The notes beneath the pieces are model-generated. The model did not search any database and was not told the DNA's origin. It worked only from the letters and a program-made list of their open reading frames with translations. A program made the position numbers and the translations under genes. Shown here in pieces: positions 7,329-41,312 of a DNA stretch of 41,312 nt. The DNA comes from a virus. The stretch lies in the IMG/VR virus record IMGVR_UViG_3300002461_000115, positions 1-41,312 of that record. One strand, 5' to 3'. The number at the start of each line of letters is the position of its first letter. The first letter of the stretch is position 1.

Positions 7329-7359
7329 TCATTCACACCAACCGCAACGGAGAAAAAAC

Positions 7360-7569
7360 ATGAACAAGCCAGCCAACAACGAAATTGCCCTTTTCACCAA
7401 CTCTGGCCTCGTGCAGTACGCATGCAGCGTCGAGGAAATGCTTAACGTTTACAACCGCGGCGGCCGTGTTTACGAAATTAGGATGGACGCTCAAGGGAGG
7501 GAAATACTCTGGCACAAGGGCCACCAGTACGAAGTCGGCTTCTTCTCTGCATCGGATCGCCAGCAATGA
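7360..7569 (+). CDS. hypothetical protein (69 aa)
   Basis: GGAGAAAAAAC SD before the ATG at 7360 (track ORF from 7282). Confidence 0.5.
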   Translation: MNKPANNEIALFTNSGLVQYACSVEEMLNVYNRGGRVYEIRMDAQGREILWHKGHQYEVGFFSASDRQQ

Positions 7570-7736
7570 GTCAGGCGGGTCTGGCCAAAACCAACGCAGA
7601 GCGCCAGCAAGCATTCCGCGACCGCCAGCCGCCAGAAGTGCGCGGCATCTTTGCCCCTCAAGACATGCACGACAAGATCAAGGCGCAGGCGGCGAATATG
7701 CTCAAGCGCAAGCCTGTTGACAAGCCCAAAGCATAG
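7566..7736 (+). CDS. small hypothetical basic protein (56 aa, MSQAGLAKTNAERQQAFRDRQ...)
   Basis: Hand translation with ATGA overlap. Below the track cutoff. Confidence 0.35.
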   Translation: MSQAGLAKTNAERQQAFRDRQPPEVRGIFAPQDMHDKIKAQAANMLKRKPVDKPKA

Positions 7737-7746
7737 CCGCTACAAT
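7717..7746 (+). promoter_or_regulatory. near-consensus promoter TTGACA-18 nt-TACAAT (candidate PR'-like late promoter)
   Basis: TTGACA at 7717..7722 and TACAAT at 7741..7746. Confidence 0.55.
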
Positions 7747-7811
7747 CGCGCCAATTGATCCGCGAATACGCAAAGAATCGTTGTCCGTGAGGATGGACAG
7801 GCGACACCAAG

Positions 7812-7837
7812 GCCACCGCTAACCACGGTGGCTTTTT
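7812..7837 (+). terminator. rho-independent terminator (GCCACCG-loop-CGGTGGC + TTTTT)
   Basis: 7-bp GC-rich stem (7812..7818 / 7826..7832) followed by T5. About 85 nt downstream of the predicted start site. Confidence 0.65.
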
Positions 7838-8223
7838 GCATTGCGCGGCACGTTTCGCCCGGCAGACCTACACCCATACAGCGGCAATGCCTCTAGGGTC
7901 TGACCGGGCACCTAACCACGGCAGGCGCACCGTGACCACAGCAGAACGCGACGAGCAGGCATATCAGCACGCCCTGCGCTGGGCTAAGTCAGCACAGAGC
8001 GGGCAACCACTCCCATTGCCACCGCACCCGATTCAATCGCGCATGTGGCAAGCATTCACACCGCTCGGGAAGAGCGAAGTCGCGAAGCGGAACGCTGCGA
8101 CATAAAGCACCGCAGCCCAGCGACGTGGTGACGAGCCGCGCTGACCCCTCCACAGCGTAGGCGGCGGGCGCTGGCACTTATCAATTGAACAAGCCGGAAG
8201 GCACTCAATGAGCAACAACCGTT

Positions 8224-9997: not shown

Positions 9998-12466
9998 ATG
10001 GCAAGAATGTCGGAAGACACACTGCGGGCGATCACCGACCAGCAGATGCGCTCTGCCGTGGGCGTGTACGGCGGCAGGCTGTCGCACCAGCGGCGCAAGG
10101 CCATGCAGTATTACCTTTGCGAGCCGGTGGGCGATCTGTCCCCGCCTGAGGTGGATGGCCGCTCGTTAGTCGTCAGCCCTGATGTGCGCAACACCATCGA
10201 AAGCATGCTCCCGCAACTGATGGTGAAGTTCGCAGGCTCTGAGCGTGTTGTGGAGTTTGAGCCGAACAAGCCGGGTGACGAGCAGAAAGCCGAGCAGGCC
10301 ACCGACTACATCAACTACGTCTTCCACCAACGCAATAACGGCGAAGGCATCTCCTACAACTGGATGAAGGACGCGCTGCTCGGCAAGAACGGCATCGTCA
10401 AAGTCTGGTGGGACGACAGGAAAGTAGAGAAGCGCGAAGACTACAAGGGGCTGAGTGCCGAGGAACTGGCGCAGTTAATGGACGACGACGAAATCGAAGT
10501 CACCGAGTCCAAGTCCTACCCCGACGAAGAAGACGCAGAGCAGCGCCAGAAGGCCATCGAGCAACTGACGCAGCAGCTACAGCAGGCCCAGCAAGCCGCC
10601 GAGATGGGCGATCCGCAGGCCATGCAAGCCGTGGAGATGCTCACGCAGCAGATGCAAGGCATCCAGTCTGCGCCGCCCGTCCTGGCCTATGACGTGACCT
10701 GCAAGCGAAGCGACAAGTGCGGGCAGATTCGCGTGGACAACGTGCCACCGGAAGAATTCCTCATCAGCCGCGAAGCGAAGACGATTGAAGGCGCGAAGTT
10801 CGTCGGCCATCGCGTGCCACGGACTGTCAGCGATCTGAAGTCGATGGGGTACAAAAACCTCGAAAACCTGTCCTCCGACGATCAGAACGTCAACTTCAAC
10901 AGCGAGCGCGTTGAGCGCCTCGCCTATGACGACGAGATGGCCGCGCTGACTGTGGATCAGACGGACACCTCCGACGATTCACAGCGCATGGTGTGGGTGA
11001 CGGAGTGCTATCTCCGTGTGGACTTCGACGGCGACGGGATTGCAGAGCTTCGCAAGGTTGTCCGTGCTGGCAACCGCGTGCTTGAGAACGAGATCATCGA
11101 CTGGGCACCGTTCGTCAGCATCACGCCGGTTCCGATGCCGCACAAGTTTTACGGTTTGTCCATCGCTGACCTGGCGCTCGATGCCCAACGAATCAAAACC
11201 AACATCCTGCGCGGCATGTTGGACAACATGTATCTGGCGATTAACGGTCGCCACTTCGCGGTTGAAGGGCAAGTCAACCTAGACGACCTGTTGGTGTCGC
11301 GTCCTGGCGGGGTTGTCCGGGTGAAGCAGCCCAACGCAGTCGGCAGGCTCGATCAGGGCGCTCCAGACTCCCAGCTCGGCCTCGGGATGATGGAGCACAT
11401 GCAGGGGTACTTGGAGGACTCCACGGGCTGGTATCGCGTCAGTCAGGGCAACGACCCATCCAGTCTGCAAGGCTCCGAGACAGCGACCAAGACCAACATC
11501 GTCACCAACAAGGCCGACATGCGGCTTGATCTGGTGGCGCGGAACTTCGCGGAAGGCTTCCGCAACCTGTTCCGCATGATGCTCAAACTGTCGGCTCAGT
11601 ACACCAACAAAGAGCAAGTCATTCGGCTTCGTGGTGAGTGGGTGACGATGGACCCGCGAGAGTGGCGCAACGGCTTCGACACCTCAATCAACGTGGGCCT
11701 GGGCACCGGCTCCAAGGATCAGCAAGTCGCGCACCTTTCCAACCTGCTGGCGCTTCAGAAAGAAGGCTTGATGATCGGCGTGGCGACACCCGAAAACATC
11801 TACCAATCAGGCGCAGAACTCATCAAGGCGATGGGCTTCAAGAACGCTGACAAGTTCCTGACCGACCCCGCAAAGATGCCTCCGCAGCCACCAGCGCCTG
11901 ACCCTGAGCAGATCAAGGGGCAGAACGCCATGCAACTGAAGCAAATGGAGCTTCAGGCCGACGCGCAGAAGTTCCAAGCCGAGACGCAACTTCGGCTGCA
12001 AGAGATTCAGATGCAGGCGCAGTCCAAGCTGCAAGAGGTTCAGGCGAATCTTGAGCTTCAGGCAGCGAACGACCAGCGAGACAGCGAGCGCGAGACGCTG
12101 AAGGCGCAACTCGACGCACAGCTTGCCCAGGCAGAGCAGGAAAACAAGCGGGCAGTGGCCGAGCTACAGGCCACGGTCGATAAGTACAAGGCTGATCTGG
12201 ACTCACAGACCAAGCTGACCATCGCGCAGATGAACGCCCAGCAGTCGATGGAACTGGCTTCAATGCAGACGCAGCAGAAAGCCGAGTCGGCTCCGCAGAT
12301 CGACTTGGCACCCATTCAAGACGCCTTGAAACAGATCATGGACTACGCCAACGCGCCCGTGGAGATTGTCAGAGGCCCAGACGGACGCGCGGCGGGCATC
12401 CGAAGGGGCGGCATGACCAAAACGATCAATCGCGGGCCTGACGGTCGCGCTATGGGGGTCGCATGA
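9998..12466 (+). CDS. portal protein with long Q/A-rich C-terminal coiled coil
   Basis: 822 aa following TerL. N-terminal RRKAMQYYLCEP...DGRSLVVSPDVRNTIESMLPQLMVKF is a portal-type motif. C-terminal about 200 aa are heptad-like. Confidence 0.85.
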   Translation: MARMSEDTLRAITDQQMRSAVGVYGGRLSHQRRKAMQYYLCEPVGDLSPPEVDGRSLVVSPDVRNTIESMLPQLMVKFAGSERVVEFEPNKPGDEQKAEQATDYINYVFHQRNNGEGISYNWMKDALLGKNGIVKVWWDDRKVEKREDYKGLSAEELAQLMDDDEIEVTESKSYPDEEDAEQRQKAIEQLTQQLQQAQQAAEMGDPQAMQAVEMLTQQMQGIQSAPPVLAYDVTCKRSDKCGQIRVDNVPPEEFLISREAKTIEGAKFVGHRVPRTVSDLKSMGYKNLENLSSDDQNVNFNSERVERLAYDDEMAALTVDQTDTSDDSQRMVWVTECYLRVDFDGDGIAELRKVVRAGNRVLENEIIDWAPFVSITPVPMPHKFYGLSIADLALDAQRIKTNILRGMLDNMYLAINGRHFAVEGQVNLDDLLVSRPGGVVRVKQPNAVGRLDQGAPDSQLGLGMMEHMQGYLEDSTGWYRVSQGNDPSSLQGSETATKTNIVTNKADMRLDLVARNFAEGFRNLFRMMLKLSAQYTNKEQVIRLRGEWVTMDPREWRNGFDTSINVGLGTGSKDQQVAHLSNLLALQKEGLMIGVATPENIYQSGAELIKAMGFKNADKFLTDPAKMPPQPPAPDPEQIKGQNAMQLKQMELQADAQKFQAETQLRLQEIQMQAQSKLQEVQANLELQAANDQRDSERETLKAQLDAQLAQAEQENKRAVAELQATVDKYKADLDSQTKLTIAQMNAQQSMELASMQTQQKAESAPQIDLAPIQDALKQIMDYANAPVEIVRGPDGRAAGIRRGGMTKTINRGPDGRAMGVA

Positions 12467-13137: not shown

Positions 13138-13689
13138 ATGTCACTGACTCCCGCACAACTCACCACGATCAAGGCCGCGATCCTGGCCGAGACTACGCCC
13201 GCGCTCGTCACGCTGCGCCAGGCCAATAACGAGCAAGGAATGGCCGACTTCTACAACGCGGACAGCGGCACGGTGGTGTGGCAGACAGCCGCGCCTGTGA
13301 ACGCTGTCCAAGACGCAGTGGACTACACAGCCTACACGCCGAACGGCACCATTGACGGTACCGCAGTGGTGACGAACCGGCTGCTGGCGGCGCAGACAAA
13401 ACAGATCAATCTGCAACTGATGTTGCAGGGCAAGACGACGCTTGACGCAACGCCCAACCGAGTACGGACGGCCTTGCTGGACGCCACCACGAACTTGCCG
13501 ACCGGCAACAACGGCACATTGCAGTCAGCCGCTGGCGTCGATGGCGTCCGTGTTTTGAATGCGCTAATCCGGCCCGCTACTCGCGGCGAGCGGCTCTACA
13601 CCTTGTCGGCCACTCAGACCGGCTCGGTGAGCGCGTTCCGGCTGACCTTTGAGGGCGGCTTACCGCCCAAAACATCAGCGATGCACTGA
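13138..13689 (+). CDS. hypothetical virion-module protein (183 aa)
   Basis: Strong AAGGAG SD before the ATG at 13138. Confidence 0.6.
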   Translation: MSLTPAQLTTIKAAILAETTPALVTLRQANNEQGMADFYNADSGTVVWQTAAPVNAVQDAVDYTAYTPNGTIDGTAVVTNRLLAAQTKQINLQLMLQGKTTLDATPNRVRTALLDATTNLPTGNNGTLQSAAGVDGVRVLNALIRPATRGERLYTLSATQTGSVSAFRLTFEGGLPPKTSAMH

Positions 13690-13699
13690 GGGCTTAATC

Positions 13700-14209
13700 A
13701 TGGCGACCTCTGGCGTTACCTACGGCACCTACACCGCGCTGACGGTCACAAACCTTCAGTCGCTGGCGAACGATGCGACCGACCCCTTCGGCGCGTGGCA
13801 GTCGGCGCGGATCAGCAACCTATCCGACCTTGCCAACGACCGTGAATTCATCATTGATCTGAGCACTGCCAACACAGCGCCAGCGAACGATTCTGGCGCT
13901 TACGTTTATGTCGTTCCGTGGATGAGCACCGACGGCGGCACGACGTGGATTCCCGGCGGGAACTTCGGCACGACCACCGCTCCTACAGGGAGCGAAGGCA
14001 CGGCCAGTATCAGCGACCCAAATTCAATGGGCGGCCCGCTGTTCATGCCATACAAGATCGCGCAGCAGCGGTTGCAATTGGCGTTTTCCGTCGTCACTGT
14101 TCTTGGCTGGATGCCAGACGCCGTGTCGCTTGCCATTCGCAATTGCACTGGCGCCGCCCTTTCGACAGGCTGCGTCGTCGCTCATAACCCGCTCAAGTAC
14201 ACAATCTGA
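13700..14209 (+). CDS. hypothetical virion-module protein (169 aa)
   Basis: ATG at 13700 within track ORF 13649..14209; avoids overlapping the upstream gene. Confidence 0.55.
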   Translation: MATSGVTYGTYTALTVTNLQSLANDATDPFGAWQSARISNLSDLANDREFIIDLSTANTAPANDSGAYVYVVPWMSTDGGTTWIPGGNFGTTTAPTGSEGTASISDPNSMGGPLFMPYKIAQQRLQLAFSVVTVLGWMPDAVSLAIRNCTGAALSTGCVVAHNPLKYTI

Positions 14210-15690
14210 TGTACCGCTCGTCTAGGCTCGTAAGGCAGCCGAATGCCCCGGTAGGGATAAACCACAGCAATCCCCTTGCCAAAGGCATTGCCATCGCCAT
14301 CACGTCGCAAGGCGGGGCGACTATCGACGCGGTATCAGGCGCGCTTCCGGCATCAGGCAACGGAACGCGAGCGGCTTCGGCTTACAGCTTCGGCAAGGCG
14401 AGGCAATACACCAGCGGGTCAGACTGGTTCCTGACGCCAGCATCCCTGAATGCGCCGACGCGCTATTCGTGGATGGTTCGCGCGAAGTTCACCAGCATTT
14501 CAGGCTTCAACGGTATATTTTGCAAGACAGCGAACCTTGGTACAACGAACGGGTTTGGTACTTTCAGAGACAGCGGGGTAGGCGACAATATAGTATTTTC
14601 TCATGATGCAGCAGCAGGCACTGTATTTGAGGCGGCGTCAAATCTTGTAAATGCTGGTTTGGTCACGATTGTCGTTACCTGGGATGGTGCGACAGCCAGG
14701 TATTACAGGGACGGAAGGTTTGTTGCAAGCGGCGCATACACAACTTTAGTCACAAGCGGGAATGGTTATCTAAAAGTCTGCTCAAACCGCGATACAAGCA
14801 CAACATCCGCATATCACGACCACACTATAGTTTGGCCGGGTAGAGTGCTTCGCGAACAAGAGGCTGAATATCTAAGCCTTGGCGATAACTCATATTCGCT
14901 GTTTACCAACCGTCGCATCTGGGTGCCGGTGTCGGTGGTGACAGGCGACCCTGCGCTAACAGGCAACACCGCCACAGCATCGACAGGAGCGCTCACCCCG
15001 AGTGAGTCGCTAGGCACAACAGGCAACCAGGTTACCGGCTCACAGGGCGCGGTAGCCCCGAATCTGAGCCTTGCCACGGCTGGCAACGCGGCTACGTCAA
15101 GCACTGGGGCGTTGGTAGCTTCGCTGACCATCGGACTGACGGGGCAAGGCGCAACGGCAAGCGCAGGCAGTATTGCGGTGGGTGGCGCAGGGGCGGTGGC
15201 GCTGTCTGGGAATGCAGCAACGGCCAACGCCGGGACGCCTGTTGCATCTCTGACGGTTGGGTTGCTCGGCAGCGCATCAACCGCGACTGTTGGCTCAGTC
15301 GGCGCGCCAACTGGCGACATCACGCTGGCGCTAACAGGAAGCGGAGTAACAGCCAGTGCAGGCGTGCTCGGCACGGGTGCTGTGGGGGTTGGCGGGTATG
15401 GGGACGACAAGCCAAGGCGGAAGAAACGGTTTGTCGTCAAGGTCGGCGACAAGTTGGTGGAGTACGGCAGCGCATCGGCAGCAGCCAAGGCACTAAACGC
15501 AGCGCCTGAAGCGAAGCCTGAGCCGGTGGCAGAGGTGCCGATCAGGAAGATCAAGGCACAGGCCCGCGTGTTCCAAGCCGAGCAGCAGATTCAGAACCTG
15601 TTCAAACAGCAGGACTTTGAAGCCATGCTCGCGCTGTATGAGCAGATGCAGGATGAAGACGATGTTGAATCTCTGTTGATGGCCCTATGA
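14209..15690 (+). CDS. LamG/concanavalin-A-like lectin-domain protein with Gly/Ala/Thr tandem repeats and an acidic C-terminal helix
   Basis: FNGIFCKTAN...GLVTIVVTWDGATARYYRDGRFVASG is Laminin_G_3-like. Repeats of the type L(T/S)G(N/Q)xAT(A/S)SxG lie between aa 250 and 400. Confidence 0.65.
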   Translation: MYRSSRLVRQPNAPVGINHSNPLAKGIAIAITSQGGATIDAVSGALPASGNGTRAASAYSFGKARQYTSGSDWFLTPASLNAPTRYSWMVRAKFTSISGFNGIFCKTANLGTTNGFGTFRDSGVGDNIVFSHDAAAGTVFEAASNLVNAGLVTIVVTWDGATARYYRDGRFVASGAYTTLVTSGNGYLKVCSNRDTSTTSAYHDHTIVWPGRVLREQEAEYLSLGDNSYSLFTNRRIWVPVSVVTGDPALTGNTATASTGALTPSESLGTTGNQVTGSQGAVAPNLSLATAGNAATSSTGALVASLTIGLTGQGATASAGSIAVGGAGAVALSGNAATANAGTPVASLTVGLLGSASTATVGSVGAPTGDITLALTGSGVTASAGVLGTGAVGVGGYGDDKPRRKKRFVVKVGDKLVEYGSASAAAKALNAAPEAKPEPVAEVPIRKIKAQARVFQAEQQIQNLFKQQDFEAMLALYEQMQDEDDVESLLMAL

Positions 15691-15974
15691 CACTTGAAGA
15701 ACAACTGCACAACGGCTCACGGGCCAAGGAAGTGCTGGAAAACGAGCAATTCCAAGCCGCGTTTGAAGCCACAGAAAAGGAACTGATCGAAGCATGGAAA
15801 AGCAGCCCTGCAAGAGATAACGAGGGCCGCGAAAAGTGCTGGGCATATCTGATGGTGTTGGGCAAGGTGAAGGCTCACCTTACATCCACCCTTGAAAGCG
15901 GGAAGCTAGCTGAATTAGAGGTGCGTCACAAGCAGGGGGTTGCAGACCGGATTCGATCTGCGTTTATGGGGTGA
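15687..15974 (+). CDS. small conserved head-module protein whose 3' end has been replaced by the HNH cassette
   Basis: ATGA start. Residues AYL...RHKQ (15843..15935) are re-encoded downstream at 16501..16593. Confidence 0.6.
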   Translation: MTLEEQLHNGSRAKEVLENEQFQAAFEATEKELIEAWKSSPARDNEGREKCWAYLMVLGKVKAHLTSTLESGKLAELEVRHKQGVADRIRSAFMG

Positions 15975-16462
15975 TGCCAAAGTTCGCCACTAACAATTCG
16001 GCAAACTGTGCGCTGTGTAATTCCGAACTCAGCAGCCAGCGCCTTGGACGATCCTCGCTTGCGTGAGTAGCGGCGCCGAATGTCCTCCGCTATCTCGCGC
16101 GTAATCTTTGCCCCTGACAGTGAAATGCGCCCGATAGAAACGGCATGGCGCGTGTTTTCTAGCCGAGTGCAGTACTCAAGATTGCTGACATCGTTGTTCA
16201 GCTTGTTGCCGTCAATGTGGTTAACAGTCATCCCCTCGCTGGGTGCGCCAAGAAACGCAGCCGCAACGAGTCTGTGCACGGCGTGTGTAGATATTTTCCC
16301 CGGCCTGCTTAGTTTTAGGCGCGCATACCCGCGATGGTCAACGTATTGCGTGACGGGGCGTTGCTCAGTGCAATATGGCCCAACCAAGCGCACGACTGTG
16401 CCGCAGCGAGCAACGGCGTAAACGCCTTCAAAGTCAAGTATTGGAGCGAATGTGAGCGACAT
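15926..16462 (-). CDS. free-standing HNH homing endonuclease (HNH_3 type with C-terminal HTH), antisense to the late operon
   Basis: YVDHRGYARLKLS...HAVHRLVAAAFLG...VNHIDGNKLNNDVSNLEYCTRLENTRH. Probable start MSLTF at 16462 (track ORF extends to 16645). Confidence 0.8.
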   Translation of the reverse strand: MSLTFAPILDFEGVYAVARCGTVVRLVGPYCTEQRPVTQYVDHRGYARLKLSRPGKISTHAVHRLVAAAFLGAPSEGMTVNHIDGNKLNNDVSNLEYCTRLENTRHAVSIGRISLSGAKITREIAEDIRRRYSRKRGSSKALAAEFGITQRTVCRIVSGELWHHPINADRIRSATPCL

Positions 16463-16500
16463 AGTGGAACCAAAGAGACGCGGACGGCCACCAAAGTATA

Positions 16501-16629
16501 GCGTACCTGTCCCTGTTGGCGAAGGTGAAATCGCACCTGGTTTCGACGTTGGAGACGGGCAAGCTGGCGGAGTTGGAAGTGCGCCACAAGCAGAGCCTGT
16601 TCGACAAAGCGCGGCAGTGGGCGGCGTGA
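16501..16629 (+). pseudogene. orphaned original 3' end of gene 15687 (AYLSLLAKVKSHLVSTLETGKLAELEVRHKQSLFDKARQWAA*)
   Basis: Hand translation. 25 of 31 residues identical to 15843..15935, with many synonymous differences. No start codon of its own. Confidence 0.7.
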
Positions 16630-16643
16630 GTTGGGCCAGTTTC

Positions 16644-16811
16644 ATGGCGCAGGTTCTCGATATCGTGAACAGCCGAGGCCATGACTACATCGCCAAGGCC
16701 ACGCATCCGGCCCCAGAGGCGTCGGAGATCGTCGCTTGGTACACGGTGCCAGTTGAACAAGGAAACGCGGGCTACGTCACCAAGCACGGCCAGCGGTACG
16801 AATTGATCTAA
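16644..16811 (+). CDS. possible small hypothetical protein (55 aa)
   Basis: ATG at 16644 inside track ORF 16452..16811. Weak SD. Confidence 0.3.
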   Translation: MAQVLDIVNSRGHDYIAKATHPAPEASEIVAWYTVPVEQGNAGYVTKHGQRYELI

Positions 16812-16901: not shown

Positions 16902-17837
16902 GTGAACTTGGACAATCCTGAACAGGAATCCACACCACTGACAACTGAGTCAGCAGCCGCCCTGTTTGCGAACTTGGGCGCACCAGAAACCGAAATCGAG
17001 CGCAAGCCCGAGCCGGTTGAAGAAACCGCAGATGAACCAGTGCTTGAACTGGAGCCGGAAGCGGAAGCCGAGGCAGAGGAAGAAGATCCACTCGTCACCG
17101 TCAAGATCGACGGCAAGGCGGTGGAAGTCAAGCTGTCCGAGCTAAAGAACGGCTATCAGCGTCAAGCTGATTACACCCGCAAGACGCAAGAAGTTTCAGA
17201 AGTGAAACGGGCTGCGGAAGCGGAGTTCACCAAGGCGCAGCAAGAGCGCCAAACCTACGCGCAGAACCTCCAGCGCCTGCAAATCCAGACGGAAGCCCTG
17301 TTGCAACAGCAGCAGGCAACCGACTGGCAAGCACTGTTGGAAAGCGACCCGGTTGAGTATCTGAAACAGCAACGCATTGCCCAAGAGCAACACGCGAAGC
17401 TGAATCAAATCCAACAGGAACAGCAGCGCGTCCAACAGCAGGAAGCCTACGAAGCCCAGCAACGCCACGCCCAACACTTGCAGGATCAGCGAGAGCAACT
17501 GCTCGCCAAGATTCCGCAGTGGAAGGACGAGGCCAAAGCCAAGACCGAGAAGGCTGCACTGCGCGACTTCCTTCTGAACGAAGGCTACGACGATGAGACG
17601 GTAGGAAGCCTCGCCGACTCTCGCGCGGTAGTCATCGCCCGCAAAGCCATGCTGTACGACCAGATGGTTGCCAAGGCATCGGCAGCGGCCAAGAAGGTCT
17701 CCACCCTCCCAACGCGCGTAGAGCGTCCGGGTGTGGGTGACAACCCCTCACTGGACAAGCGCTCTGCCGCATTCCAGAAGCTGAGCAAGTCGGGCCGCGT
17801 AGAAGACGCGGCCGCCTTGTTCGCGAACCTCATTTGA
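16902..17837 (+). CDS. scaffolding protein
   Basis: Acidic N-terminus; KIDGKAVEVKLSELKNGYQRQADYTRKTQE motif; Q-rich coiled coil. Located immediately upstream of the capsid gene. Confidence 0.75.
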   Translation: MNLDNPEQESTPLTTESAAALFANLGAPETEIERKPEPVEETADEPVLELEPEAEAEAEEEDPLVTVKIDGKAVEVKLSELKNGYQRQADYTRKTQEVSEVKRAAEAEFTKAQQERQTYAQNLQRLQIQTEALLQQQQATDWQALLESDPVEYLKQQRIAQEQHAKLNQIQQEQQRVQQQEAYEAQQRHAQHLQDQREQLLAKIPQWKDEAKAKTEKAALRDFLLNEGYDDETVGSLADSRAVVIARKAMLYDQMVAKASAAAKKVSTLPTRVERPGVGDNPSLDKRSAAFQKLSKSGRVEDAAALFANLI

Positions 17838-17872
17838 TTTTCTAACGCCGAGAGGCGCTGAAAGGACGTGCC

Positions 17873-17938
17873 ATGACTGCACCAACCGGAACATTCCTCA
17901 CCACGGCTGCTATCGGCAACCGCGAAGACCTGACGGAT
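17873..17938 (+). CDS. major capsid protein, exon 1 (MTAPTGTFLTTAAIGNREDLTD)
   Basis: AAAGGA SD. Matches the N-terminus of SU10/DUF5309-type capsid proteins. In-frame TAA follows immediately in the unspliced sequence. Confidence 0.85.
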
Positions 17939-18195
17939 TAAATTGGTCCCCTTGCAGAGCGATCTGCATTGAACAATCGCGTGAATTGCTGGAACCCCCT
18001 AACGGTTGGTAGCCGAGGGCAATCAGCAGCCAAGCGTCGCAGGAATGCGGTGAAGGTTCAACGACTAGGGCACGGAGTCCAGACCGGACGGTAAAGCCCC
18101 ACGAGCGCGCGACACCCCTAGAGGGTGATGAGATAGTCTGAGCTGCAATGAAAGTTGCAGAGGGTGGGATAAAGAGCCCACCGATAACAAAACTG
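17939..18195 (+). mobile_element. group I intron 1 (257 nt, ORF-less)
   Basis: Begins after U17938 and ends with G18195. GATAGTC J8/7-P7-like element, CAGAC/GUCUG P7 candidate and a GAAA-tetraloop hairpin. Splicing restores the frame. Confidence 0.8.
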
Positions 18196-18273
18196 ATCAT
18201 TTACCGCATCAGCCCGACGCAAACGCCGGTTCTGAACATGTCGGCCAAAGCCAAGGCCACCAACACGCTGCAT
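18196..18273 (+). CDS. major capsid protein, exon 2 (IIYRISPTQTPVLNMSAKAKATNTLH)
   Basis: 26 in-frame codons matching the conserved IY-ISP-TP...H block of the family. Confidence 0.85.
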
Positions 18274-19127
18274 AGCCTATAATTTGTGCAGTTAAAACCG
18301 AGCTAATTGCTGGAACATCCTTAGAGGCCCATTCCCCGCAGTGGAAAAGTAATGGACATTGGACAATCAGCAGGAAAGAGTTACGGATACATCCTCGGGG
18401 TGTATCTAGGTGATGGATGCGTCACCTTGCAAGTCAGTCACAACAGCGGACACACTACAAAGTGGTATCCGGTGTTCCGAGTCAACACTATTGACGAAGA
18501 TTTTGCAGTCGCCATCAAACAGGCGCTTGCAGAACTGACTGACAGGCCAGTGAACATCTGTAAGCATGACGTGAAGAAGAGCAGCAAGCCGAACTATTCG
18601 CTGCGCTGCGGCTCCCCTGAGCTTTGTCAAAAGCTCGTAGACGACACGAACTCCAAAGCCATGATTCCCGCGTATGTGTGGGGCTGGTCAAAGTCTGAAA
18701 AGCTGGCGTTTATCGCTGGGTTGATGGACAGCGAGGGGTTTGTCAGCAAGAACCACCAAAAGGACACTTCCTTTTACATGGGGTTCAAGTGCTGCGAATC
18801 GTGGGTGCCTGATTTCGTCAAGCTGTTGGAATCCGTGGGGATCATGACTGGCAAATTGTCAGTCTGCCCGCCATACAAAGACGGATACCGAACACCGATG
18901 CGGTTCCACATCAAGATGGAATCATGGGTACGCGAAGGCGCGTATTTCAAGATTCAGCGCAAACAAGCGCGGATTGATGAATGGAAAAGCCGTAGGCTAT
19001 CCTCAGAGACTATATGCTTGGCCGCATAACCGGCGGATGATATAGCCCGAACTGCATCGAAAGTTGCAGAGGCAGCAGAAATGACTGCCCGCCAGCAGAG
19101 TATCGCTGGTCCTCAAGTAACAGAATG
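18274..19127 (+). mobile_element. group I intron 2 (854 nt) carrying a LAGLIDADG homing endonuclease ORF
   Basis: Begins after U18273 and ends with G19127. 6-bp P1 of CTGCAT (18268..18273) with GTGCAG (18286..18291), with U.G at the splice site. Shares core blocks with intron 1. Confidence 0.85.
18352..19029 (+). CDS. double-motif LAGLIDADG homing endonuclease (intron-encoded)
   Basis: Motifs YILGVYLGDGCV and FIAGLMDSEGFV. About 50 percent GC in sampled lines, against a visibly more GC-rich genome. Confidence 0.9.
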   Translation: MDIGQSAGKSYGYILGVYLGDGCVTLQVSHNSGHTTKWYPVFRVNTIDEDFAVAIKQALAELTDRPVNICKHDVKKSSKPNYSLRCGSPELCQKLVDDTNSKAMIPAYVWGWSKSEKLAFIAGLMDSEGFVSKNHQKDTSFYMGFKCCESWVPDFVKLLESVGIMTGKLSVCPPYKDGYRTPMRFHIKMESWVREGAYFKIQRKQARIDEWKSRRLSSETICLAA

Positions 19128-19934
19128 GAATGGCAGACCCAAGACCTGGCCGCTGTTGCAACCAGCCCGTTCAACGCGCAGGTTGAAGGCGACGTTGCAG
19201 GCGCTGGCACGACCGTGCCTGTCGGCAAGACGATCACCCCGACCGTCCGCCTGACGAACCGCACGCAGATCAGCGCCAAGACCGCCATTGTCTCGGGCAC
19301 GCAGCAAGCCATGAACCAGGCTGGCCGCAAGGACGAGATGGCCTACCAAATGTCGCTGATTTCCTTGGAAGTCAAGCGCGACATGGAAGCGGGCCTGACG
19401 CAATCCGACGTGTTGGCAACGGCTCCGCGTCAATCGCGTGGCCTGCGTGGCTGGGTGGTGGACAACGTGAACCGCAACGGCGGCACGCTGGCTTCGTACA
19501 CCGCCAACACCGGCTACACCGCTGGTACCTTGCGATCGTTCACTGAGTCTCAGGTGAAGGACGTTCTCCAGCAGGTCTATACCGCTGGTGGCGAGCCCGA
19601 CACCATCATGCTGCCGCCCGCCCTGAAGCAAACCTTCAGCGGCTTCACCGGCAACGCGACCCGCATGGACAAGTCTGAGGACGCCAAGCTGTATAGCTCG
19701 GTGGACTTCTACGTGTCCGACTTCGGCACGCTCCAGTGCGTTCCAAATCGCTTCATGGCGACTCGCGACGTGTTTGTTCTGGAGTCCTCGAAGATTGCCA
19801 TCGCCTACCTGCGTCCGTTCATGACGGTTGAGTTGGCGAAGCTGGGTGATTCGATGCAGCAACAGTTGATCGTGGAATACACGATGGAATGCCGCGCACC
19901 GAAGGCCCACGGCGCGATTTATGATGTTAACTGA
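19128..19934 (+). CDS. major capsid protein, exon 3 (EWQTQDLAAV... to stop)
   Basis: Track ORF 19125..19934. HEWQTD junction restored by splicing. Family blocks NRTQISAKTAIVSGTQQA and GRKDEMAYQ...EVKRDME. Confidence 0.9.
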   Translation, partial: EWQTQDLAAVATSPFNAQVEGDVAGAGTTVPVGKTITPTVRLTNRTQISAKTAIVSGTQQAMNQAGRKDEMAYQMSLISLEVKRDMEAGLTQSDVLATAPRQSRGLRGWVVDNVNRNGGTLASYTANTGYTAGTLRSFTESQVKDVLQQVYTAGGEPDTIMLPPALKQTFSGFTGNATRMDKSEDAKLYSSVDFYVSDFGTLQCVPNRFMATRDVFVLESSKIAIAYLRPFMTVELAKLGDSMQQQLIVEYTMECRAPKAHGAIYDVN

Positions 19935-19951
19935 TTGATTCTGCTATACTG

Positions 19952-19973
19952 CACTCCTGTTTACTCAGGAGTG
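19952..19973 (+). promoter_or_regulatory. perfect 8-bp hairpin CACTCCTG-tttact-CAGGAGTG that sequesters the HNH gene Shine-Dalgarno
   Basis: The 3' arm contains AGGAG, 5-9 nt upstream of the ATG at 19978. Confidence 0.55.
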
Positions 19974-19977
19974 TGGT

Positions 19978-20646
19978 ATGCGGGCATCAAGAGTTGGATC
20001 GTTTGCAGAGCGGTTTGGGTCAAGATTTCAGGTTGACAAAGAGACTGGTTGTTGGAATTGGGATGGCCCTAAAACGCCTAAAGGTTACGGGCGTATTGCT
20101 GGCGTCGTGATTGATGGTGTGCGGCACACGGAGCGGGAGCGGGCCATGCTTGCTCATCGTGCATCGTGGCTTTTGTACTGCGGCCCGATCCCAAAAGGTG
20201 AGGGCGCTCACGGTACGGTTGTGATGCACAAGTGCGACAACCCAGCATGTGTGAACCCGCATCATTTGGCCTTAGGGACGCAAGCAGACAACGTGCGGGA
20301 CATGATCCAGAAGGGCCGCAAGGTTTCTGGCACGCCATCCGGCGTTGAGCATTGGCGCTCCAAGTTCAAGTCTCAAGAGGACATTGACCTGATCTGCGCA
20401 ACAAGGGGCCGCACCAAGGAATTGGCAGAGCGGTTCGGGGTTGATGTTTGCACCATCAAGCGGATTCGCATTCGCAATGGCGTCAAGGTGGCCCAGCCTG
20501 AGAAGTTCAAGAACAAGCCGCTTACGCAGGAAGCGATAGACCACATCCGAAGCACGCCACCCGGCACGCGAGGGTTGGGGAAGTTGTACGGGGTCGGCAA
20601 GACAACCATTGCCAACATCCGCAAGGGCTTGACTCACGCCCGCTGA
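19978..20646 (+). CDS. free-standing HNH homing endonuclease with two C-terminal HTH repeats
   Basis: GCWNWDGPKTPKGYGR...AHRASWLLYCGPIPKG...VMHKCDNPACVNPHHLALGTQADNVRD. Sampled GC about 48 percent. Confidence 0.85.
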   Translation: MRASRVGSFAERFGSRFQVDKETGCWNWDGPKTPKGYGRIAGVVIDGVRHTERERAMLAHRASWLLYCGPIPKGEGAHGTVVMHKCDNPACVNPHHLALGTQADNVRDMIQKGRKVSGTPSGVEHWRSKFKSQEDIDLICATRGRTKELAERFGVDVCTIKRIRIRNGVKVAQPEKFKNKPLTQEAIDHIRSTPPGTRGLGKLYGVGKTTIANIRKGLTHAR

Positions 20647-20667
20647 CTGAACGAAACACATCAACAA

Positions 20668-20689
20668 GGCACCTTCGGGTGCCTTTTTT
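20668..20689 (+). terminator. rho-independent terminator, GGCACC-UUCG-GGUGCC + T6
   Basis: Read directly; UUCG tetraloop. Confidence 0.75.
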
Positions 20690-20706
20690 GTTTAAAGGAA
20701 CAAATC

Positions 20707-21153
20707 ATGTCTATCGACATTCGACAAGGGGCTGACGGCTCCCTTGAGATGGTGGGCAACCAAGACAGCACGCGGAACCCGACCGCAGGCGTGGGCTGGT
20801 TGACCGCATCCATCAACTACAACGTCCCGGCTGCTGATGCCACGTTCTTCATTGCTGACCGCGCATATGTCGTCAAAGGCATTCGCGGCGTCACTGATGT
20901 GGCAGGCACGGGTGGTGCGTGTACCGCAGTGATCCGCAAAGTGCCCTCGGGTACTGCGCTGGCCTCTGGCACGGCACTTCACACCGGCACGTTCAACCTC
21001 GTCGGCACCGCTGCCACCAATCAGATCCTCACGCTGGTGAATACGGTGTTGGCTGAGCCGCTGTTGGCTGCTGGTGATCGCTTGGCCTTTGACCTGACCG
21101 GCACGGCCACATCGGCCATCGGTTGCGTCACGGTGACGCTGGCACCGGCCTGA
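20707..21153 (+). CDS. hypothetical head-associated protein (148 aa; decoration/cement candidate)
   Basis: AAAGGAA SD. Own terminators on both sides suggest high expression. Function inferred from position only. Confidence 0.55.
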   Translation: MSIDIRQGADGSLEMVGNQDSTRNPTAGVGWLTASINYNVPAADATFFIADRAYVVKGIRGVTDVAGTGGACTAVIRKVPSGTALASGTALHTGTFNLVGTAATNQILTLVNTVLAEPLLAAGDRLAFDLTGTATSAIGCVTVTLAPA

Positions 21154-40923: not shown

Positions 40924-41244
40924 TCATTTCCACCGCGCCCGGCCCAGCCGCTGCGCCAAAACGGTGATGTGCGCCTCATACGCTTCAATGCGCTGGGACA
41001 GCCGATCCGCGTGCGCATAGGCCGCAACGCGGTCTTGCCGGATGTGCAGCACGTCGCGCTCGGCATGCTTGATGCGCCATGCCAGATACTTGACTTCGGC
41101 CCATGCGAACAGCTTCCAAAGGAGCGGGCGGCGCGTCGGTGTGTAGGTCATCATTTCGTGTTCCTCGTCAGTGAATCGAGCAAGTCGGCACCACAGCACG
41201 CCAGCGCACAGGCTTAGTAGCAGGTACGCCAGCGCGTAGGTCAT
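40924..41244 (-). CDS. hypothetical protein with N-terminal TM (106 aa); start lies inside the terminal repeat
   Basis: Track ORF. The ATG at 41244 equals position 26 of the window start. Confidence 0.55.
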   Translation of the reverse strand: MTYALAYLLLSLCAGVLWCRLARFTDEEHEMMTYTPTRRPLLWKLFAWAEVKYLAWRIKHAERDVLHIRQDRVAAYAHADRLSQRIEAYEAHITVLAQRLGRARWK

Positions 41245-41312
41245 GGCAAATACCCAAACACAAGCGCAGCGATCACGCCAACCACGCCTACCGCGCTCAT
41301 GGCGTAGCTCAC
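41219..41312. repeat. second copy of the 94-bp terminal repeat
   Basis: Identical to 1..94. Confidence 0.95.

Follow-up and report, generated by a model that had tools for sequence, protein, structure and literature searches.

The major capsid gene of the virus genome IMGVR_UViG_3300002461_000115 (IMG/VR record, positions 1 to 41,312; the whole 41,312-nucleotide (nt) stretch is hereafter called the window) appears to be divided by two group I introns that lie only 78 nt apart. We propose, with a probability of roughly 0.88, that the late capsid transcript contains two mobile group I introns and is spliced to a 316-codon mRNA, and that an endonuclease encoded within the second intron serves its homing. 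The evidence consists of the anatomy of the gene, intron-less alleles in relatives, homology to other introns, covariation within ribozyme helices, guide sequences that change together with their exons, and the fold of the endonuclease.

The window has no intact capsid open reading frame (ORF). Three in-frame pieces on the plus strand are separated by gaps of 257 and 854 nt. A Shine-Dalgarno-like AAGGA (17862..17866), read directly from the sequence, lies 6 nt 5' of the start codon of exon 1 (17873..17938), whose 22 codons (M1-D22, MTAPTGTFLTTAAIGNREDLTD) end in GAT, leaving a U at position -1 and a TAA directly 3'. Intron 1 (17939..18195, 257 nt) begins with this in-frame UAA, contains no ORF and has G18195 as its last base. 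Exon 2 (18196..18273) is a 78-nt mini-exon of 26 codons (I23-H48, IIYRISPTQTPVLNMSAKAKATNTLH) that ends in CAT, again with a U at -1. Intron 2 (18274..19127, 854 nt) carries a homing endonuclease gene; the UAA at 18280-82 is in frame, and the last base is G19127. Exon 3 (19128..19934) starts with EWQTQDL, encodes E49-N316 and closes with a stop codon at 19932-19934. The first-pass annotation, made from the letters and their ORFs, had proposed these three pieces; every coordinate was confirmed, and both gaps follow a T (17938, 18273) and finish in a G (18195, 19127).

Joining the exons in silico (66 + 78 + 807 nt) yields a 951-nt ORF of 316 codons. The predicted spliced junctions read CTGACGGAT^ATCATTTAC at the intron 1 site (site 1) and ACGCTGCAT^GAATGGCAG at the intron 2 site (site 2), where ^ marks the junction, and the corresponding junction peptides would be LTD^IIYR and TLH^EWQ. 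The joined product matches Pfam SU10_MCP (PF17236, formerly DUF5309) at 298 bits in a single stretch covering residues 11-315 and profile positions 5-291/292. The solved capsid protein 9ny2_A aligns with residues 1-315 at E 8e-46, and the head protein of phage SU10 (7z45) aligns with an E of 2e-22; both alignments run unbroken across both junctions. The family's most conserved motifs correspond to residues 14-51 and are present in solved capsid structures. These matches agree with the earlier assignment of the joined pieces to the SU10/DUF5309-type capsids, and the family motif given with it proved correct.

An uninterrupted version of the gene exists in an independent metagenome. Its 316-residue protein, P0001, is 98% identical to the joined product over 100% of the latter (E 2e-198), and the two are identical across the N-terminal ~160 residues, a segment that spans both junctions and includes the exon 1 protein (P0001 residues 1-22). 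At both junctions the alignment columns are invariant and ungapped. The DNA encoding P0001, locus L002, is colinear with the window in three blocks (to 17931, 18196-18273, and from 19128) and reads GAC^ATC and CAT^GAG exactly at the two insertion points. At site 2 the intron-less sequence is CTCCATGAGTGG in the L002 type and CTGCATGAATGG in the window type with the intron deleted. The bases on the two sides of each boundary are different, which leaves no room to move the junctions, and removal of each insertion restores the host sequence exactly, to the nucleotide. Of the 58 silent differences between the window and L002, 7 lie in the 48 nt (out of 951) that are no more than 12 nt from a junction, a clustering (p 0.022) that is compatible with co-conversion or with constraints on the P1 helix alike. 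An intein and programmed bypass were also considered as explanations and rejected.

Intron 1 matches the full length (1-253) of the Rfam group I model RF00028 (Intron_gpI) at 80.3 bits (E 5.5e-19), passing the gathering score of 50 in the covariance-model check that the first-pass annotation had called for. Its P1 (17935..17949, plus strand) pairs GGAUUA (17935-40) with UGGUCC (17944-49), and the wobble U17938-G17946 marks the 5' splice site; the four-base GGAT/GTCC pairing noted earlier is thus present within a 6-bp helix. Homologous introns have a P1 of GACGGAU/GUCCGUC. The catalytic core and 3' domain (17977..18182, plus strand), placed by the Rfam match and by alignment with other site-1 introns, comprise P3 (17977-83/18106-12), P4 (17987-92/18023-28), P5 and P5a, P6 (18029-31/18055-57), P6a (18035-40/18047-52), P7 (18063-67/18134-38), P7.1 and P7.2 (within 18068-18099), P8 (18113-17/18123-27), J8/7 (18128-33), P9 (18143-60, with a GAAA loop) and P9.1 (18163-82). 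A 22-bit match to the archaeal small nucleolar RNA sR12 at 18123-18168 (gathering score 38, E 0.048) is a chance resemblance within the J8/7-P7-P9 region.

We compared the intron 1 core with six introns at the same site in metagenomic relatives (seven sequences), using a hand-specified structure of P3, P4, P5, P5a, P6, P6a, P7, P8, P9 and P9.1. Across its 57 pairs, 97.8% of cells are paired, against 29-42% in slid registers; 30 of the 57 changed on both sides, and none of 500 shuffles reached any measure. P7 (GACUA/UAGUC, 5 bp) is invariant in the seven loci and hence gives no covariation signal either way. The 32-nt insertion between P7 and the P3 3' strand (18068-18099) can form GGGC/GCCC around GUCC/GGAC, and by eye its outer stem reads CGGC/GCCG in locus L123, GCGC/GCGC in L206 and GGGA/UCCC in L127. 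Subgroup IA introns have extra helices, P7.1 and P7.2, at this position, and the extra hairpin domain of intron 1 may follow their layout. Two motif scans of viral contigs each gave at least ~120 loci, and the 3' motif occurs in over 119, so the intron 1 family is very common.

Intron 2 is recognizable as a relative of intron 1. An nhmmer profile built only from the site-1 introns of other loci detects intron 1 at E 1e-56 and also both flanks of intron 2 (19032-19075, E 9e-8; 18286-18371, E 2e-4), colinear around the ORF, with no other significant match in the window. A permissive Rfam scan combined with the nhmmer scan likewise gave no further introns in the window. The intron 2 P1 (18268..18291, plus strand) pairs CUGCAU (18268-73) with GUGCAG (18286-91), just as first described, and the wobble U18273-G18286 marks the 5' splice site. 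The 5' part of the core (18298..18375, plus strand) contains the P3 5' strand (18298-303), P4 (18308-13/18367-72), P5 (18318-20/18361-63), P5a (18329-32/18352-55, its 3' strand containing the endonuclease AUG) and the P6 5' strand (18373-75). The 3' part (19000..19109, plus strand) contains the P6 3' strand (19000-02), P7 (19008-12/19043-47), the P3 3' strand (19016-21), P8 (19022-25/19033-36, with the endonuclease stop UAA at 19027-29 in its loop), J8/7 (19037-42), P9 (19052-69, GAAA loop), P9.1 (19071-89) and P9.2 (19092-109). Two elements reported for both introns at first pass were found in place, the J8/7-P7-like GA(G/T)ATAG(T/C)C at 18131-18138 and 19039-19047 and the GAAA-tetraloop hairpins, which are the P9 helices at 18143-18160 and 19052-19069. 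Taken together, the pieces, P1 pairings, core elements and P9 hairpins go far beyond chance.

The helices of intron 2 also show compensatory change. With the ORF trimmed, we compared the window intron with those of loci L195, L123, L127 and L328 (five sequences, 42 pairs) over P3-P4-P5-P5a-P6-P7-P8-P9. Here 95.0% of cells are paired, against 35-42% in slid registers. Both sides changed in 11 of 42 pairs, a count reached by 2 of 500 shuffles, and the covariation score was 0.298 against 0.129 (0 of 500). P3, for example, is CCGAGC/GCUUGG in the window, UCUGGC/GCCAGA in L123 and UCUAGC/GCUAGA in L127, and P6 is GGA/UCC but GGU/ACC in L328. P1, P7.1/7.2 and the P9.1/9.2 of intron 2 were excluded from the counts, which formally begin at P3 because size differences in P2 and P5 put pairwise and MAFFT alignments out of register.

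Guide sequences and exons change in step. Both 5' exons of the window end in a U paired with a G of the guide sequence, and both introns end in G (omega-G). In L328, whose capsid is 33-54% identical to that of the window, the exon before the same site reads CUACCAU and the guide GUGGUAG. In loci L123-L129 a homologous intron sits 4 nt downstream of site 2, after CAU GAG U, and its guide GCUCAUG matches the exon CAUGAGU. This co-variation across loci supports intron 2. At site 1, a T at -1 and a G at -4 occur in 13 of 13 intron-bearing alleles, against 25 of 70 and 10 of 70 intron-less ones. Site-1 introns all begin with TAA or TGA; a stop codon at the start of an intron is a known feature, thought to keep ribosomes from the ribozyme (PMC3984707).

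The first-pass reading of intron 2 stood, but a 225-residue ORF inside it had gone unmentioned. This ORF (18352..19029, plus strand) is predicted from Pfam, model fold and motifs to be a single-chain LAGLIDADG homing endonuclease. It matches Pfam LAGLIDADG_3 at 27.9 bits (cutoff 22.5) and contains the motifs ILGVYLGDG (D21) and IAGLMDSEG (E128). Both acidic residues are invariant in 40 homologues and are the predicted catalytic residues. An AlphaFold model with a confidence score (pLDDT) of 90.7 indicates an intact alpha-beta-beta-alpha-beta-beta-alpha double-domain LAGLIDADG fold, and Foldseek searches with it return PI-PfuI (TM 0.72), PI-SceI and I-DmoI, all at probability 1.0. The two LAGLIDADG motifs, the catalytic Asp/Glu and, by model, the fold are shared with these enzymes, while at the sequence level phmmer gave no match among PDB sequences; tblastn gave none in 50,697 isolate-phage records. 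A metagenome protein set holds 515 relatives of the enzyme. The three homologues whose context was examined (58%, 66% and 84% identical; 8 loci) all lie inside an SU10-type capsid gene, at site 2 of the window or 4 nt from it, and one of them also occurs in a Roseovarius genome assembly.

The endonuclease gene is interwoven with its ribozyme. It begins in the 3' strand of P5a, where its AUGG pairs with CCAU, passes through P5', P4' and P6 until it exits the core at the P6 loop, re-enters through P6', J6/7, P7 and P3', and stops in the P8 loop. Overlap of this sort between ORF and core goes with tight control of ORF expression (PMC3984707), and by analogy the window endonuclease may be tightly controlled too.

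Several observations weigh against the proposed reading. Intron 2 scores only 20.0 bits on RF00028 (E 0.023, for 18776-19069) and does not reach the gathering score, because the 678-nt LAGLIDADG ORF splits its core; the homologous introns of L127 and L123 score 33.9 and 23.5 bits. The Rfam check thus failed for intron 2, which is supported instead by homology, covariation, guide/exon co-variation and frame restoration. On this evidence we regard intron 2, like intron 1, as a supported group I intron. The guanosine-binding helix P7 of intron 2 (GACUA/UAGCC) is weak (one A-C mismatch in the window; pairing in 72% of cells), and an alternative 5' strand, GGCUA at 18995-99, would make five perfect pairs in the window. 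We prefer the register 19008-12, which would leave only 3-4 nt between P7 and the P3 3' strand, because UCAGAGACUA-UAU-P3' parallels the Rfam consensus UCAaAGACUA-AA-P3' and because the A-C of the window is an isosteric G-U in L328. Moreover, the endonuclease ORF overlaps P5a, P5, P4, P6, P7, P3 and P8 and could hinder folding. The covariation sets are small (five and seven sequences), and some of the helix definitions came from those very sequences; the counts therefore lend support without amounting to independent proof. The P1 of intron 1 is short, two of its 6 bp being G-U pairs, and counting identical flanks once leaves the association of bases at -1 and -4 with intron presence no more than suggestive (p 0.066 and 0.17). 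Finally, we infer splicing, endonuclease cleavage and homing from the DNA sequence.

The same weaknesses would fit a different division of labor, in which intron 1 self-splices while intron 2 needs a helper (a host factor, or maturase activity of its own LAGLIDADG protein) or splices poorly and thereby limits or times capsid production. P7 is the weakest helix of intron 2, the Rfam score is low and the ORF runs across most core strands; maturase activity occurs among the LAGLIDADG proteins of organellar introns. Yet the other core helices of intron 2 are paired in 95-100% of cells with compensatory changes, and the G-U of L328 fits a P7 helix that is maintained. Persistence of the intron 2 type in capsid genes whose products are 33-61% identical also implies that the most abundant structural mRNA is efficiently freed of it. 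We consider the need for a helper improbable and favor two introns that would each splice on their own.

Could the capsid gene simply be dead, disrupted by mobile DNA in a phage that is decaying or defective, or broken by an assembly artefact, so that no full-length capsid is made? The lack of an intact ORF is what such a gene would present. The genome, however, looks complete. Positions 1-94 are repeated at 41219-41312, and this 94-nt end overlap points to a circular or terminally redundant genome of ~41,218 bp. A terminase gene, an SU10 portal gene (9998-12466) and a scaffold-like ORF lie upstream of the capsid gene, and the window has no second capsid gene. The ratio of nonsynonymous to synonymous differences (pN/pS) for exon 1 is ~0.15-0.3 against other intron-bearing loci, and for exon 2 pS is 0.47-0.69 and pN 0.07-0.15 (against L123, L127 and L195), values that indicate purifying selection on both exons in genomes that bear the introns. 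The two-intron architecture was assembled independently from several samples, ribozyme helices and P1 guides are maintained by compensatory change, and both insertions remove cleanly. A dead gene is therefore very improbable.

Equally hard to credit is a truncated capsid protein starting at M19125, with the upstream pieces as unused relics. ATG 19125 does open a 269-residue ORF that gene callers annotate, and the 90%-identity cluster of the window capsid contains five fragments of 269-280 residues beside eight full-length 316-residue members. This start codon, however, lies within intron 2 and is not conserved (TTG in L195, other sequence in L123 and L127), which makes the 269-residue capsid unlikely. 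Moreover, the family's most conserved motifs correspond to residues 14-51, and the upstream exons stay in frame and under selection.

Intron occupancy varies widely among relatives. Most sampled capsid loci have neither site occupied. Site 1 alone is occupied in L145, L162, L163, L165, L166, L206 and L372, site 2 alone in L195, L196 and L328, and both introns are present in the window and in L123-L129, the latter with the second intron in its 4-nt downstream position. All states (none, site 1, site 2, both) occur even inside a 90%-identity capsid cluster, a pattern of gain and loss as expected of homing elements. The shifted introns of L123 (5927-6798, endonuclease 84% identical) and L127 (5926-6795, 66%) follow CAT GAG T and so lie within the Trp50 codon. 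LAGLIDADG enzymes cut with a 4-nt stagger, leaving 3' overhangs, and since 4 nt also separates the two sites, these may flank the cleavage overhang.

Site-1 introns differ in what they carry. An ORF with HNH (Pfam HNH) and helix-turn-helix parts lies near the 5' end of the introns of L145 (321-1324), L166 (118-1110), L206 (2517-3512) and L372 (~1963-2957). The site-1 intron of L127 (5098-5843) has an HNH-like ORF in its P8 loop, recognized by an eye-read motif where Pfam found nothing. Introns without an ORF occupy site 1 in the window, L123, L162 (1685-2026) and L165; L162 looks like a deletion derivative because its core is identical to that of L166. Capsid genes of this family contain at least four insertion sites. 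One of them holds a third group I intron in L127 (~7352-8081), also present in L128 and L129, located after D241, within the VD^xYVSDFG motif, which is invariant. It scores 43 bits on Rfam, has the P1 GUGGAU/GUUCAC, belongs to the same family as introns 1 and 2, and encloses a 165-residue LAGLIDADG-like ORF whose Pfam score of 19.5 bits is under the cutoff.

Relatives of the capsid extend into bacterial assemblies. L328 (4781-6647; protein P0151), also found in the Roseovarius sp. SK2 assembly, has a distant SU10-type capsid with the site-2 intron alone. The public record gives the endonuclease as "hypothetical protein" and the capsid as fragments of 48 and 232 residues, so mis-annotation of this kind is probably common. 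Capsids 68-71% identical to that of the window occur in Pseudomonas isolate assemblies, including the complete P. nitroreducens TX1 chromosome, and in Variovorax isolate assemblies (L333-L336, L360), and a contig of a Devosia metagenome-assembled genome encodes one 64% identical; the capsid lineage therefore includes prophages of Proteobacteria. A megablast search with 17000-21000 gave no match in 50,697 phage records, and the window thus has no close isolate relative there.

These observations suggest how the locus could work. Both ribozymes would belong to a widespread phage intron family, of the type found in phage DNA polymerase genes. Each intron would fold, bind free guanosine and cut after the last U of its exon, held in a U-G wobble; ligation of the exons would follow at the intron's own terminal G, completing two-step splicing initiated by GTP. 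Removal of 257 and 854 nt would leave one 316-codon mRNA for an SU10-type (HK97-fold) major capsid protein, while UAA codons at +1 of intron 1 and +7 of intron 2 would keep ribosomes from the ribozyme cores. When relatives co-infect, the LAGLIDADG enzyme would cleave their intron-less capsid genes in the conserved sequence that encodes TNTLH^EWQ, and repair of the cut would copy intron 2 into the intron-less allele. Intron 1 could be a deletion derivative that has since lost its endonuclease, or be carried along by co-conversion, which is plausible because it lies only 78 bp from the intron 2 cut site.

More tentatively, the N-terminal coding region of the capsid gene could be a contested arena between phages, with the endonuclease serving as both weapon and spreader, the introns moving as a unit and insertion sites shifting between cut edges. 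Cutting a rival's capsid gene would spread intron 2 and at the same time cripple the late gene that the rival needs most, and repair of the cut would drag along the ORF-less intron 1, 78 bp away. The two sites in CAT^GAGT^GG would then be the two edges of a 4-nt staggered cut, the guide having been re-tuned after the shift. Interference competition has been shown for the intron endonuclease of PhiPA3 (PMC11620839). We hold this wider scenario to be possible but on balance doubtful.

Several elements of this arrangement have precedents. Group I introns occur in the capsid genes of mycobacteriophage LittleE (Cluster J) and lactococcal phage Tuc2009, and the LittleE intron contains a LAGLIDADG-like ORF; close relatives lack this intron, and RT-PCR and N-terminal sequencing demonstrated its splicing (PMC3706429). 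As in the window, these introns interrupt the major capsid gene of a tailed phage, with an exon ending in U and an intron ending in G. Unlike the window, with two introns 78 nt apart in an SU10-type gene, each of those phages has one intron, in another capsid family and a Gram-positive host; the LittleE ORF lies on the opposite strand, whereas the window endonuclease gene lies in sense orientation and shares sequence with the ribozyme core, and splicing in the window is predicted from sequence. Multiple introns in one gene are cited for Staphylococcus phage Twort, with three in orf142 (cited in PMC6669764) and two in nrdE (cited in PMC3984707), and terL of Jug phage is split into 2-3 pieces (PMC12363816). 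There too an essential phage gene holds several related group I introns and regains its ORF only when all are removed, but the host gene is another, and the sites of the window are occupied independently in relatives.

Sequences in 34 Staphylococcus phage records match the intron 1 core at 60-90% identity, and the same range covers all 83 matching records, which include Alteromonas and Pseudomonas phages. The matches listed show 77-87% identity over 34-83% of the ribozyme, and the closest among them are DNA polymerase introns of phages that include Bastille-like Bacillus phages (Hakuna, Megatron) and Enterococcus phage vB_EfaS_TV16, at 77-87% identity over 36-83%. The Bacillus and Enterococcus introns share the P3-P9 layout of intron 1, and HNH genes are annotated beside the Enterococcus matches, comparable to the HNH ORFs in L145, L166, L206 and L372; they differ in residing in a replication gene and in their guides, and the window copy has no ORF. 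Pseudomonas phage LUZ24 (Bruynoghevirus) has a verified 669-bp group I intron in its DNA polymerase gene (PMC10914365). It is a podophage with an SU10-type capsid, and capsids of its genus are ~36% identical to that of the window, but the genus capsid genes matched are uninterrupted. Full-text literature searches gave no report of introns in SU10-type capsid genes, and the isolate phages sampled contain no split copy of this capsid gene. The suggestion at first pass that the arrangement is new needs narrowing: we found no report for SU10-type capsids, but phage capsid introns and multi-intron phage genes as such are known, and the arrangement recurs in metagenomic relatives.

The window (GC 59%, no tRNA genes) contains further endonuclease genes. 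Free-standing HNH_3 genes at 19978-20646 (plus strand) and 15926-16645 (minus strand) bracket the scaffold-capsid module, and the position of the downstream one is kept in L002, L123 (60% identity) and L372 regardless of intron status. We considered "collaborative homing" of intron 1 by the gene at 19978-20646 and found it unsupported: the gene is present at the equivalent place in L002, which lacks both introns, and in L123 and L372, and its similarity to intron-borne HNH proteins is marginal (E ~1e-4, in the helix-turn-helix part). A 265-residue ORF at 19113-19910 (minus strand), antisense to exon 3, is most likely a GC-rich shadow ORF rather than a gene. Between the portal and the HNH/scaffold genes, 13138-15690 contains three consecutive ORFs (183, 186 and 493 residues, the last with a weak Laminin_G_3 match), and L123 has a single gene of 747 residues in their place.

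What sets the locus apart from the known cases is a 26-codon exon enclosed by two introns, an insertion site moved by 4 nt with its guide adjusted to match, and an ORF that heavily overlaps the ribozyme core. Once the introns are recognized, the main structural gene can be annotated correctly across a widespread group of environmental podophages, where gene callers yield a 269-residue fragment and "hypothetical" pieces and where public records, including the Roseovarius genome, show the same mis-annotation. Near-identical capsid genes with none, either or both introns make the locus a compact natural system for the turnover of introns and endonucleases, with site 1 carrying an HNH gene in two positions or none and LAGLIDADG introns at two sites 4 nt apart with matching guides. 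The phage would tolerate two ribozymes, one with core strands that are mostly coding, in the mRNA it needs most. The locus may also be a good test case for intron endonucleases as weapons between co-infecting phages.

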